Shown here piece by piece: positions 61,037 to 64,000 of a DNA stretch of 64,000 nt (the stretch's first letter is position 1; each line of letters opens with the position of its first letter). Where the stretch lies: assembly GCA_034669905.1 (NCBI GenBank), contig JAXMOL010000038.1, positions 17,367 through 81,366 on the forward strand. Direction: 5' to 3'. This DNA is from Candidatus Hydrogenedentota bacterium. Lineage in GTDB: Bacteria; Hydrogenedentota; Hydrogenedentia; Hydrogenedentales; JAEUWI01. The notes beneath the pieces were generated by a model, which was not told the DNA's origin, searched no databases, and saw only the letters and a list, made by a program, of their open reading frames with translations. Position numbers and translations under genes: made by a program.

Positions 61037-62134
61037 ATGTTAATCGATTTTGGCGGGGTTGAAGAAAACGTCGTTACGCGGAAAGAATTTTCCATAGCCA
61101 AGGCCAAAAAGGTCTTGAAGAATGAAACCATCGCGGTCATCGGTTACGGCGTACAGGGCCCGGCCCAGGCGTTGAATATGCGCGACAACGGCTTCAACGT
61201 CATCGTCGGTCTGCGCGAAGGCTCCAAAGAGAGCTGGAAACGCGCCCAGAAAGATGGCTGGAAAAAAGGCGTCGACCTCTTCACCACCGAAGAAGCCCTC
61301 GAACGGGCCACGACGATCCAGTACCTCGTTTCCGACGCGGCACAGAAGGCCTACTGGCCGACCCTCAAGAAGTACCTGAAGCCCGGCGATGCCCTCTATT
61401 TCTCCCACGGCTTCTCCATCACCTACAAAGAACACACCAAGGTCATTCCCCCGGAAGACGTGGACGTGATCATGGTCGCCCCCAAGGGCTCCGGCACCTC
61501 GGTGCGTCGGAACTACCTCGCGGGTGTGGGCATCAACTCCAGCTACGCCGTGTTCCAGGACGCGACGGGCAAAGCCACCGACCGCTGCCTCGCCCTGGGC
61601 ATCGCCCTCGGCTCCGGCTACCTCTTCCCCACGACCTTCGAAAGCGAAGTGTACAGTGACCTCACCGGCGAACGCGGTATCCTTATGGGTGCCCTGGCCG
61701 GCGTGATGGAAGCCCAGTATGAAGTACTGCGCAAGAACGGCCACAGCCCGGCCGAAGCCTTCAACGAAACCGTTGAAGAGCTGACCCAGAGCCTTATCCG
61801 CCTGGTCGACGAAAACGGGATGGACTGGATGTTCGCCAACTGCTCGGCCACGGCCCAGCGTGGCGCCCTCGACTGGGCTCCCAAGTTCAAAAAGGCCACC
61901 CTGCCCGTCTTCAAAGACCTCTACAAGCGCGTCAAGAACGGCGAAGAGTGCAAACGCGTCCTGCGCTCCACCGGCGGCAAAGACTACAAAGAGAAGCTCG
62001 ATAAAGAGCTCGCCGCCATCCGCGACAGCGAAATGTGGCGTGCCGGTGCCGCGTCCCGCTCCCTGCGGCCCAACGTGCCGGAAGCCAAGCGCATCAAGTC
62101 CACCAAGGGTGTGGCTGGCCGCGGCAAGAACTAG
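61037..62134 (+). CDS. ilvC: Ketol-acid reductoisomerase
   Basis: IGYGVQG, FSHGF, APKGSG, SDLTGERG, CSATAQRGA. Confidence 0.95.
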   Translation: MLIDFGGVEENVVTRKEFSIAKAKKVLKNETIAVIGYGVQGPAQALNMRDNGFNVIVGLREGSKESWKRAQKDGWKKGVDLFTTEEALERATTIQYLVSDAAQKAYWPTLKKYLKPGDALYFSHGFSITYKEHTKVIPPEDVDVIMVAPKGSGTSVRRNYLAGVGINSSYAVFQDATGKATDRCLALGIALGSGYLFPTTFESEVYSDLTGERGILMGALAGVMEAQYEVLRKNGHSPAEAFNETVEELTQSLIRLVDENGMDWMFANCSATAQRGALDWAPKFKKATLPVFKDLYKRVKNGEECKRVLRSTGGKDYKEKLDKELAAIRDSEMWRAGAASRSLRPNVPEAKRIKSTKGVAGRGKN

Positions 62135-62190: not shown

Positions 62191-62419
62191 GCTTTAATAC
62201 CAATAGATATGCCATTCTCCACGACGAGGGTGAGCACGATACCGCGGAGACTTGAATGGTCACCAATGGGAAGAGACAGCATCACGGGCACTGGTGTGCA
62301 GGGCAAGTGCCTCCACACCCGACCGTCTGGTCTTCTCGTCCAGCGGTATCGACGCGTAATCGTGTCCCGGTCACACGGGCTCACGCACGCGGGGGATGTT
62401 TCAGAAAGGGAGAAGCCCG

Positions 62420-63328
62420 TTGAATGACCTGATTCCAGGCGCCGTTGCCGGCCCGCCCGATGGCAGAAATTTTGAGTCATCCTGGTATGGCGACTACCTT
62501 CAGGCCCATCTCTTAACGGACATCGGCCTGAAGCGGCAGAAGAATGAAGATTCCTGCCTCATGTGCGCCCCGAAAAACCCTGTCCTCATCGACGAACGGG
62601 GGCTCTTCTTTTCCGTCGCCGATGGCATGGGCGGTGCCAGTGCGGGCGAGTTCGCCAGCCGCATGTCCCTCCGGGCCATGCACACCGCCTACTACACCGG
62701 ACCCCGAAACCCCATCCCCGAAGCCCTGGGCGAAGCCCTCGAAGACGCCAACCAGCGGGTCTTCGAAGAAGCCGAAATTAACCCCGAATACGCCGGCATG
62801 GGCACTACCGTTTCTGCGGTCCTTATCGATGGAGGCTGGGCCTACATTGCCCAGGTGGGCGACAGCCGGGTGTACCTCCTCCGGGAACGCTCCGGCATCC
62901 ACCAGATCACCGAAGACCACTCCCTCGTCGCCGAGCAAGTCCGTAACGGCGTCATCAGCGAAGAAGAAGCTGAAAACAGCTCCTTCAAAAACCTCATCAC
63001 CCGCGCCGTCGGCATCAAGGCCGACGTAGAGGTCGACCTCTTCGCCGTCCGCATCATGCAGGGCGACACCCTCCTCATCTGCTCCGACGGCCTCTGCAAC
63101 ATGGTCACCGACGAAGAAATCGCCACCTGCCTTTCCGATGGCGACCTCAAGCTCGGCACCCGCAAAGTCGTGGACCTGGCCCTGGCCAATGGCGGCTCCG
63201 ACAACATTACGGCGGTTACAGTCCGGGTCATCGACACGCCGCCCCGGGCGCCCTTACAAGCCGGTGCCCGCGAAGTATCCATCCCCAACAGTGGATTCTT
63301 CCGCCGCATCCTCGCCTGGTTTCGCTGA
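62420..63328 (+). CDS. PP2C-family Ser/Thr phosphatase (Stp1/PrpC type)
   Basis: RQKNED, VADGMGG, MGTT, GDSR, DHS, CSDGL, GGSDNIT; TTG start inferred. Confidence 0.92.
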   Translation: MNDLIPGAVAGPPDGRNFESSWYGDYLQAHLLTDIGLKRQKNEDSCLMCAPKNPVLIDERGLFFSVADGMGGASAGEFASRMSLRAMHTAYYTGPRNPIPEALGEALEDANQRVFEEAEINPEYAGMGTTVSAVLIDGGWAYIAQVGDSRVYLLRERSGIHQITEDHSLVAEQVRNGVISEEEAENSSFKNLITRAVGIKADVEVDLFAVRIMQGDTLLICSDGLCNMVTDEEIATCLSDGDLKLGTRKVVDLALANGGSDNITAVTVRVIDTPPRAPLQAGAREVSIPNSGFFRRILAWFR

Positions 63329-63465
63329 AAAAGTCGGAGCGGCGTGAGCGTAAACAAGCATATCCCCGCCCTTGGTGCAGCTGACATCGCTCGAAGGCCT
63401 TTGGCCACACCAACAGGGGGACACCCTCCCCTGCAGACCGTCTACCCTGGCCCCACCTATCCAGA

Positions 63466-63644
63466 TTAGAACCGGATTCTTTCGTAATTCATGGAAACTC
63501 TTCCACTGGAAGGGAACACGCCGCACGGGATCCCCCCTTGATGTCGCCCAGTTTGAGGTAAGCAGGTCCACCCTTTACCGCCGCCGCTTCGTCCGCACTG
63601 ATCACTTTTTCTTCCGTAATCTCGGCAACCGTGATGTCCTTCAT
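63466..63644 (-). pseudogene. Double-glycine-leader peptide precursor, copy A (probable 1-nt frameshift)
   Basis: MKDITVAEITEEKVISADEAAAVKGG|PAYLKLGDIKGGSRAACSLPVEEFP* (stop at 63489). One extra base near 63498 gives ...LPVEEVSMNYERIRF* (stop at 63466), 59 aa like copy B. GGAGGA RBS. Confidence 0.7.
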
Positions 63645-63711
63645 AGCGCATTCCTCCACCCCTGCACGGGGCCCGGTTGCTTCGATTTCGACGTGATGGG
63701 AAAGGGGACTG

Positions 63712-63891
63712 TTACGTCCACTCTACTTCGGTGTAACCCGAGGCGGGCTTCTGAACCGTGGGACGGGCCAACCGGGATTCACCCTTGATGTCGCCCAGTT
63801 TGATGTAAGCAGGTCCACCCTTCACCGCCGCCGCTTCGTCCGCACTGATCACTTTTTCTTCCGTAAGCTCGGTAACCTTGATGTCTTTCAT
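63712..63891 (-). CDS. Double-glycine-leader peptide precursor, copy B (59 aa)
   Basis: MKDIKVTELTEEKVISADEAAAVKGG|PAYIKLGDIKGESRLARPTVQKPASGYTEVEWT*; GGAGGA RBS 7 nt before the ATG; below the ORF track cutoff. Confidence 0.85.
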   Translation of the reverse strand: MKDIKVTELTEEKVISADEAAAVKGGPAYIKLGDIKGESRLARPTVQKPASGYTEVEWT

Positions 63892-63955
63892 GGCACATTC
63901 CTCCGCCCCTGCACAGGGCTCGTTCGTTTCGGTTTCGACGTGATGGGAAGGGGGA

Positions 63956-64000
63956 CTAGTACGTCCACTCTACTTCGGTGTAACCCGTGGCGGGCTTCTG
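63956..64000 (-). CDS. Peptide precursor copy C, 3' end only
   Basis: ...QKPATGYTEVEWTY* in frame from the window edge; homologous to the copy B C-terminus. Confidence 0.75.
   Translation of the reverse strand, partial: QKPATGYTEVEWTY

Follow-up and report, generated by a model that had tools for sequence, protein, structure and literature searches.

The window analysed here is a stretch of 64,000 nucleotides from a Candidatus Hydrogenedentota bacterium (genome G000; GCA_034669905.1, contig JAXMOL010000038.1, here C38, positions 17367-81366), and its right-hand end carries a tandem array of small genes encoding peptides with leaders of the double-glycine type. Position 64000 is also the end of the contig. 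A preliminary description, made from the sequence alone, had reported a 247-bp repeat with GGAGGA-bearing minus-strand genes at this end, and Tandem Repeats Finder, applied to the window, confirmed it with one tandem array covering 63526-64000, which has 1.9 copies of a 247-nt period with 90% matches and a score of 803. The ATG-to-ATG spacing is likewise 247 nt, and a GGAGGA ribosome-binding site lies 7 nt ahead of each ATG. Copy B is present in the list of open reading frames (ORFs) with 59 aa, as quoted before, and copy C does enter from the edge as an open-ended frame (Table 1). The core of copy B contains a motif from the N-terminal strand of Hcp, the tube protein of type VI secretion, followed by a linker and a motif from the C-terminal strand of Hcp.

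Extension of the contig to the right and a count of the copies had been proposed as a check. The array continues on a different contig, C47, which terminates in the same 247-bp repeat as C38. Read in the sense direction, C47 contains a 5' untranslated region, copy 1, copy 2 and the first bases of a third copy. Both contig ends lie inside the repeat and show no exact overlap; since this applies to copy C and the end of C47, the assembly gap is likely to hold one or more additional copies. The locus is thus multicopy as described, with at least five genes over C47 and C38 as a lower bound: copy 1, copy 2, a third gene (possibly identical to copy C), copy B and copy A. The join between C47 and C38 is proven by L008, a 4657-bp contig of the same-genus genome G007, which is collinear with the tail of C47 (89% over 2706 nt), continues with one B-type and one A-type gene and then matches the end of C38 (92% over 514 nt). 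The relative has two genes at this locus and G000 has at least five; therefore the 247-bp B unit was amplified in the G000 lineage. Contigs of the DNA run X1 break within the array, so that no copy number could be obtained from this run.

Table 1. Features of the peptide gene array at the right end of the window and on contig C47 (window positions unless C47 is given)
Feature	Position	Strand	Basis
Copy C, 3' end of a B-type precursor gene (...QKPATGYTEVEWTY, stop), cut at the contig end	63956..64000	-	sequence and translation; open-ended frame
Copy B ribosome-binding site (GGAGGA), 7 nt ahead of its ATG	63899..63904	-	
Copy B, 59-aa precursor: 26-aa double-glycine-type leader and 33-aa core	63712..63891	-	ORF list
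GGAGGA ribosome-binding site of copy A	63652..63657	-	
Copy A, A-type precursor gene, frameshifted	63466..63644	-	alignment with intact orthologues
Spacer separating the array's last gene from the convergent gene for the PP2C phosphatase	63329..63465	.	simple terminator scan, fold test
Copy 1, 60 aa	C47 63321-63500		
Copy 2	C47 63568-63747		

The individual copies were then compared with each other and with their orthologues. Copy B is 98% identical to copy 2 on C47; where the other B copies end in Tyr, its TAC codon has become TAA. The idea of diversifying cores behind a conserved leader did not hold, since identity among the B-type cores is 85-98%, and in the orthologues the cores of both types are conserved under purifying selection. 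Copy A does differ from copy B in its C-terminus, as stated before, but it is not merely divergent: it represents a distinct, conserved A-type that carries a 1-nt deletion in comparison to the intact orthologues in G007 (L008) and G003 (L065). The frame listed for copy A (63489-63659, minus strand; ATG at 63644, stop at 63489) encodes 51 aa ending in VEEFP, and the conserved tail MNYERIRF with its stop codon is shifted into the next frame, down to 63466. In addition, Gly replaces Glu in the GDIKGE motif of this copy. Intact A-type forms of 59 aa are represented by P0003 and P0004, and an X1 contig across the deletion site is identical to the window there. The ratio of nonsynonymous to synonymous substitution rates (dN/dS) against the G007 orthologues on L008 is 0.10 for copy B (dS 0.47) and 0.19 for copy A (dS 0.55). 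Codon-level conservation, which had been named as a check on the genes, was thus found, and the codons are under purifying selection.

Among 20 relatives, the peptide family was found in seven of the eight other genomes of the genus and in the one genome of a second genus, and in none of the 11 other genera. In the whole phylum it is present in 10 of 135 genomes (G000 counted), representing three of 66 genera and one family. Records from Acidobacteriota, Blastocatellia, Verrucomicrobiae and Rhodanobacteraceae/Xanthomonas (19 loci) contain it as well, and G000 itself carries at least eight such peptide genes. The patchy spread of the family suggests horizontal transfer. The recurrence in seven of eight genomes of the genus together with the dN/dS values of 0.10-0.19 argues that these genes are more than chance reading frames. 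A weak hint of a transcript comes from the RNA run X18, in which one 264-nt contig spans the A-type gene of a relative together with some 73 nt ahead of its ATG and some 11 nt behind its stop codon; the RNA runs X19 and X20 reach the phosphatase side only.

Double-glycine leaders are about 15-30 residues long and end in Gly-Gly; their positions -4 and -12 are hydrophobic, and position -8 is acidic. The leader of the array peptides comprises 26 aa, ends in V-K-G-G and presents G-1, G-2, V-4, E-8 and I-12, with Ala and not Leu at position -7. Met1, Val-4 and the Gly-Gly pair are invariant in 17 aligned family members. The leaders are thus of the double-glycine type, in agreement with the preliminary description. 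The window peptides are not recognised by the curated leader and precursor models (Pfam ComC and Bacteriocin_IIc; NCBIfam). Leaders of relatives reach 19.5 bits with Pfam ComC (cut-off 20.4) and 12-13 bits with Bacteriocin_IIc. Leads from the protein Atlas all stayed below 0.9 and comprised small hypothetical proteins, a cluster with 18% GRASP_targ_2 members (0.86) and a ComC cluster (0.83).

The mature B-type peptide starts with PAYIKLGDIKGES, continues with a 12-residue linker and ends with GYTEVEWTY, and the mature lengths are 33-34 residues. A-type peptides carry the tail P-x-E-x-F-S-L-N-Y-E-R-I-R-F instead. A profile of the family, compared with all PDB sequences, gave 13 matches at E<=10 (best E 0.0035), of which at least nine are Hcp (1y12 and four fusion constructs with its Hcp1 segment), EvpC or Hcp1-family chains. 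All of these align at the N-terminal strand, for example at FIKIGDVKGES of 1y12. In a profile-profile comparison, hhalign aligned the tail of the core with residues 123-138 of the Hcp that G000 itself encodes (PTEEGSIAFTTIKWEY; probability 47%, P 2e-4), and a custom Hcp hidden Markov model (HMM) mapped the tails to the same C-terminal positions. The observed HMM score was reached by 7 of 1000 shuffles for copy 1, 5 of 1000 for copy 2, 49 of 1000 for copy B and none of 1000 for three orthologues. This HMM and the alignment A4 are thin (7 and 6 sequences), and the search for homologues of the genome's own Hcp gave three proteins. In a library of 1.8 billion proteins, 12 of the 23 scanned family proteins match Pfam T6SS_HCP, four of them above the cut-off, either at profile positions 1-31 (P0018, 24.1 bits, above cut-off) or at positions 112-129 (P0039, E 4.5e-4); seven of the 33 library matches are large FG-GAP repeat proteins and were taken as unrelated. 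The different Hcp statistics agree in family, position and order. The 12 N-terminal residues are near-invariant across the Hydrogenedentota, Acidobacteriota, Verrucomicrobiae and Rhodanobacteraceae/Xanthomonas records.

Like Hcp (PF05638; PDB 1y12), the mature peptide has the N-terminal and then the C-terminal strand motif in the same order. It differs from Hcp in covering only about 20 of 129 profile positions, in having no Hcp fold and in its location behind an ABC-export leader. A member of the Hcp family comprises a full beta-barrel of about 129 profile positions and reaches the gathering score; the window peptides do neither, and we regard them as Hcp fragments and not as family members. 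The real Hcp of the genome has 163 aa, is encoded beside TssC on contig C9, begins with MANAFFLKIDGVTGES and ends its last strand with FTTIKWEY. It differs from the peptides in precisely these strand motifs, and the peptide cores are closer to the 1y12-type motif than to this protein.

Hcp is not the only protein from which pieces appear in this peptide family. Sister peptides from the same genus match the Hcp profile at positions 19-67 (33.1 bits, above cut-off) and 86-108, DUF1559 at positions 1-28 (38.2 and 34.5 bits, above cut-off) and the C-terminal H-X9-DG region of DUF1559 (22.8 and 20.3 bits; P0035, 26.2 bits). Chimeras of the Hcp N-strand with the DUF1559 C-terminus exist among the double-glycine peptides. 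In double-glycine peptides of L017, L018, L021 and L022 (Acidobacteriota/Blastocatellia), the segment behind the Hcp N-strand motif matches EF-Tu, with 15 of 18 residues shared with the G000 tuf product. The precursors of L021 and L022 have two GG-type sites each. The 11-residue N-strand motif is also found in 4-15 tandem copies in larger proteins, some of which have N-termini that resemble signal peptides by eye. Proteins with tandem copies of the motif Y-[ILM]-K-[LI]-G-D-I-K-G-E are P0009, P0010, P0011, P0016, P0021 and P0030 (metagenome); P0030 additionally repeats the middle motif of Hcp (T6SS_HCP 65.9 bits), and P0010 shows a weak match to the phage tail-tube protein gp19, under the cut-off.

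A prepilin N-terminal pattern search yielded 46 pilin-like paralogues in the genome. All 46 read LPAL(A/S)RAR..A after the helix, and 44 of the 46 are identical there. The sister peptides read LLLPAVQ..., which fits the Pfam DUF1559 consensus rather than these paralogues. The cores thus look foreign, matching the general Hcp and DUF1559 consensus and not the host paralogues. Recent capture from the bacterium's own genes was rejected, as the core DNA has no nucleotide-level source in the Hcp or pilin-like genes of the genome (blastn-short) and resembles none of its other genes at this level either. The 46 paralogues themselves form an unusually uniform family and share about 40 near-identical N-terminal residues (...NNLKQ...). 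Five peptide-bearing genomes of other lineages were also searched: G021 and G022 gave no Hcp match and G024 gave fragments only, and TssC was found in none of G021, G022, G024 and G012.

Upstream of the array, a -24/-12 motif (TGGCACGGCCTTGGCT) begins 113 nt before the ATG of copy 1 on C47, and the G007 orthologue has a similar motif at the same distance from the ATG. In the loci fetched, 12 of the 56 distinct peptide genes have such a motif at an upstream distance of 88-165 nt, and each of the 12 either opens its run or is alone in it. From the genome-wide frequency of 0.0136 matches per strand-kb, about 0.2 of 56 would be expected. The motif has the GG at -24 and the GC at -12 that define sigma-54 promoters, and an activator with a Sigma54_activat domain (201 bits) and HTH_8, without a receiver domain, is encoded on contig C6. 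Dependence of the operon on sigma-54 is thus predicted. Neither this promoter type nor the Hcp motifs of the cores were part of the preliminary description. No sigma-70-like promoter and no intrinsic terminator were detected in 63200-64000; in particular, the simple scan gave no terminator in the spacer behind copy A, which folds like its shuffles (z 0.26). RNA folds of the spacers and the 3' flank were no better than those of shuffles (z +0.9, +1.0 and +0.3). The 5' untranslated region gave a z of -2.1, and 5 of 200 shuffles folded equally well; no conclusion was drawn from this value. In the long intergenic region upstream of the array, about 180 nt at C47 ~62526-62704 are missing from the orthologous G007 contig. 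A 210-nt query spanning this insertion (C47 62510-62719) showed no repeat family and had three matches in the genome including itself.

A transporter had been expected beyond position 64000 or elsewhere in the genome. The region beyond 64000 contains the rest of the array, but a C39/ABC exporter with an HlyD adaptor was found on contig C6. In the whole genome, PF03412 has just two matches, one in a protein of 1038 aa on C6 (135 bits) and one in a stand-alone protein of 292 aa on C24. The C6 protein contains two stretches of a cyclic nucleotide (cNMP)-binding domain, Peptidase_C39 (130 bits), ABC_membrane and ABC_tran, and is thus a peptidase-containing ABC transporter (PCAT). It reads ...QIDEMDCG... 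and ...NHWIV..., and we take the DCG and NHW motifs to be the catalytic Cys and His motifs. A PCAT with both residues is therefore encoded in the same genome as the array, and the search for a C39 transporter, suggested as a check, had a positive outcome. Its neighbours are the HlyD-family adaptor, two paralogous genes for double-glycine peptides and the sigma-54 activator. The exporter operon starts with the gene for a 325-aa protein with a confidently predicted fold (predicted local distance difference test, pLDDT, 89.5), whose best PDB matches are the chaperone-parvulins SurA, PrsA and PEB4 (E 3e-5 to 1e-3).

Nine relative loci were scanned with Pfam, covering 78 of 89 called ORFs (11 ORFs of L014 were excluded). 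A cNMP-type PCAT was found in four of them, HlyD in four and a sigma-54 activator in three; the others are orphan arrays. Maturases, which had been predicted together with a possible ribosomally made, post-translationally modified peptide (RiPP) product, were not found: no radical SAM, lanthipeptide or YcaO-type domain is present among the scanned ORFs of the nine relative loci and the genome's own loci. Likewise, the genome has no graspetide-type ATP-grasp, the best TIGR04187 match reaching 26.4 bits (cut-off 350) on another contig. A Cys-rich protein of about 380-410 aa is encoded directly before the sigma-54 activator (C6:23567-24706; L027 3567-4706), and a paralogue with the common C-terminal ...LYDFGILE precedes the peptide gene on C3 (C3:176111-177337). 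These Cys-rich proteins match no Pfam family and are kept in L019 and L023. The exporter operon is adjoined by an ADP-ribosylglycohydrolase gene (C6:32468-33415; L027 12468-13412), the product of which has its best match in the model for ADP-ribosylarginine hydrolases of the Tri1 type (311.9 bits, under the 490-bit cut-off); the relative locus L019 retains this neighbour together with a DSP-type phosphatase. The second C39 place (C24:46682-50616, L031) encodes a protein of 997 aa, which has both the N-terminal motif of DUF1559 and an H-X9-DG match, followed by the 292-aa C39 peptidase-domain protein, the only C39 domain of the genome besides that of the C6 exporter.

Because the array and the C6 locus share the leader family and the promoter type, and because the genome (95.7% complete) contains no other PCAT, we infer that the C47/C38 array belongs to the regulon and clientele of the C6 system. 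The overall best explanation, which we advance tentatively and rate at a little under an even chance, is a sigma-54-type operon whose products are exported by the C6 PCAT as unmodified Hcp-mimic peptides. At least five tandem genes for precursors of 59-60 residues would be transcribed from the sigma-54-type promoter, which the C6 activator would fire. The SurA-like chaperone would hold the precursors, the C39 domain of the exporter would cut after Gly26, and the ABC part, gated through its cNMP domains, would export the 33-34-mer together with HlyD. The mature peptide would be released unmodified and would then mimic Hcp towards other bacteria, either as a decoy or by interfering with an Hcp-binding partner. 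We prefer such stoichiometric mimicry, with moderate confidence, over a pheromone or a pore former, because the B gene is amplified, because putative Sec-type secreted proteins elsewhere carry the same 11-residue motif in 4-15 tandem copies, because the cores match the general Hcp/DUF1559 consensus and not the host paralogues, and because some peptide-bearing genomes show no Hcp or TssC.

Several observations weigh against this explanation. Neither window peptide has any Pfam or NCBIfam match even at E<=10, and each single Hcp statistic is modest (E 0.0035; hhalign 47%; 49 of 1000 shuffles for copy B), as the pieces are short. AlphaFold2 with a 9-row alignment gave no confident fold for the 33-residue core (pLDDT 58, no secondary structure). 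Array and exporter are not linked in the genome and are paired by leader family, promoter type and the lack of another PCAT. Furthermore, the C6 PCAT scores below the NCBIfam cut-offs for bacteriocin exporters (TIGR03796, 549 versus 853 bits; TIGR01193, 442 versus 524), and the Cys-rich 379-aa protein beside the activator, which has no assigned family, could be an enzyme. The genomes in which Hcp or TssC went undetected are bins from metagenomes, that of G012 with a completeness of 60%, so that absence is not established. The X18 contig, with 11 differences in 148 nt, originates from a relative, and RNA libraries can contain DNA. Transcription, cleavage, export and the target of the peptide are all predicted from the sequence.

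The same genes might encode quorum or alarm signals like ComC/CSP that are exported by the nucleotide-gated PCAT, sensed by kin and fed back on the sigma-54 activator, the Hcp likeness being what the receptor recognises. The leader is nearest to the ComC type (the relative's 19.5 bits against 20.4 and the ComC cluster of the Atlas at 0.83), a sigma-54 activator is part of the exporter locus, a 1396-aa CHASE/PAS hybrid histidine kinase is encoded upstream in the relative locus L012, and HetC of Nostoc, a PCAT with a ppGpp-binding cNMP-type domain, is proposed as the exporter of a signalling peptide (PMC10986499). However, no sensor kinase is found among the scanned ORFs of the genome's own C6 locus, the activators have no receiver domain, and the motif recurs in 4-15 tandem copies in large secreted proteins. 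Signals are also usually encoded by single-copy genes; in G000, amplification of the B gene is at least 4-fold, and at least eight such genes are present in the genome. We consider a pheromone unlikely. Unmodified class II or microcin-like toxins that damage membranes, with Hcp as their evolutionary source only, would fit the combination of double-glycine leader, PCAT and HlyD, which is the export architecture of colicin V and class II bacteriocins, and systems of this kind do have tandem multicopy precursor genes. The mature peptide, counted from its sequence, has five basic and four acidic residues, no Cys and no hydrophobic stretch, and no small immunity-like membrane gene lies beside the array, which is flanked by an ExbD/TolR-like gene and the PP2C gene. 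A near-invariant N-terminus of 12 residues across phyla would also be unusual for arms-race toxins. We consider a bacteriocin quite unlikely.

Modification of the K/D/E/S-rich motif before export, by graspetide-like cross-linking or via the Cys-rich protein, would turn the modified peptide into the active form. The 325-aa protein does give a partial and weak match to TIGR04500 (48.5 bits, cut-off 180), the family of MirC (PMC13097080); the Atlas points to the cluster with 18% GRASP_targ_2 members (0.86), and the uncharacterised Cys-rich 379-aa protein is conserved beside the activator, with a paralogue ahead of the C3 peptide gene. Against this, the fold predicted for the 325-aa protein is that of a chaperone-parvulin and not of a modification enzyme, the KxxxD motif of corallotide does not fit, and neither a graspetide synthetase (26.4 bits with TIGR04187 against 350, on another contig) nor a radical SAM, lanthipeptide or YcaO-type gene was found among the ORFs scanned. 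A RiPP thus seems improbable. The array could also be a decaying or selfish minigene repeat that is not expressed, and the frameshift and the lost motif residue in copy A and the missing last codon of copy B would agree with this. Such a repeat would hardly show dN/dS values of 0.10-0.19 against its orthologues, conserved ribosome-binding sites and promoter motif in G007 and retention in seven of eight other genomes of the genus, and lack of function is very improbable.

Comparison with known systems places the array next to class II bacteriocin, colicin V and ComC-ComA export, with which it shares the short acidic Val-x-Gly-Gly leader, the C39 and ABC exporter with Cys and His motifs, the HlyD adaptor and the tandem small genes. 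It differs from these in its cores, which copy Hcp strands and are not amphipathic toxins or pheromones, in the two N-terminal cNMP-binding domains of the exporter and the sigma-54-type control, and in a cytoplasmic SurA-like chaperone encoded by the first gene of the exporter operon; in addition, the window peptides reach no Pfam or NCBIfam leader model. With the NHLP/Nif11 systems it shares the best NCBIfam matches of exporter and adaptor, TIGR03796 (PCAT) and TIGR03794 (HlyD), and those systems typically have multicopy precursor arrays at a distance from the exporter. The scores here are under the cut-offs, that of the adaptor being 37.6 bits (cut-off 156), and the 26-aa leader has no NCBIfam match and is not a long enzyme-derived leader. 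As a long leader similar to nitrile hydratase or Nif11 and a PCAT above the TIGR03796 cut-off define membership, the C6 system does not belong there. In NHLP/Nif11 precursors the leader is the borrowed protein piece, whereas here it is the core.

The exporter HetC of Nostoc PCC 7120 is also a PCAT with an N-terminal cyclic-nucleotide-binding-type domain and a proposed role in regulatory-peptide export; this domain binds ppGpp and is needed for function, and the substrate is unknown (PMC10986499). HetC has one cNMP-type domain and no adjacent membrane-fusion gene (PMC10986499), whereas the C6 exporter has two such stretches, an adjacent HlyD gene and candidate substrates. The domain make-up of the C6 exporter is closest to that of HetC. 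The rosaritide graspetide cluster (MirA-D) combines a TIGR03796-type PCAT with a GG-cut precursor and with MirC, a PpiC/chaperone-type protein of TIGR04500 that partners the graspetide synthetase (PMC13097080). The array and its exporter resemble it in these three components, but they have no ATP-grasp synthetase, and the TIGR04500 match is partial and far under the cut-off. A co-occurring ATP-grasp synthetase or other maturase, which would mark a graspetide or other RiPP precursor, is thus not present at the loci scanned. No published description of an Hcp-like double-glycine cargo was found in the literature searched, which did not cover subscription journals.

The usual reading of double-glycine peptides is as toxins or pheromones whose cores are arbitrary. 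In the present array, the cores are recognisable copies of conserved Hcp strands, and sister genes copy pilin-like DUF1559 proteins; the main interest of the array is this Hcp-mimicking cargo. If mimicry is true, the array would be a natural, genetically encoded means by which the type VI secretion weapon could be disturbed or sensed extracellularly, and its products would be ready short peptide ligands for Hcp rings. The system would also offer physiological substrates for the little-understood cNMP-domain PCATs, whose relative HetC is still without a known substrate (PMC10986499). A wider reading, which is doubtful at present, is that in several phyla sigma-54-controlled, nucleotide-gated exporters release peptide copies of the most conserved strands in subunits of other cells' nanomachines, and that these act on type VI secretion and pilus-like machines as jamming agents, decoys or reporters. 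The cargo library would then comprise the Hcp tube, DUF1559 pseudopilin-like proteins and, in Acidobacteriota, the EF-Tu segment, and it would represent a new class of interbacterial defence or sensing based on molecular mimicry. On the practical side, such arrays fragment short-read assemblies and slip past gene callers.

In the window, the convergent neighbour of the array (62396-63328, plus strand) encodes a PP2C Ser/Thr phosphatase of the Stp1/IreP family (NF033484, 251.5 bits, cut-off 230), for which no connection with the array was shown. In addition, a 365-aa ORF at 61037-62134 on the plus strand resembles ketol-acid reductoisomerase, as judged by eye only.

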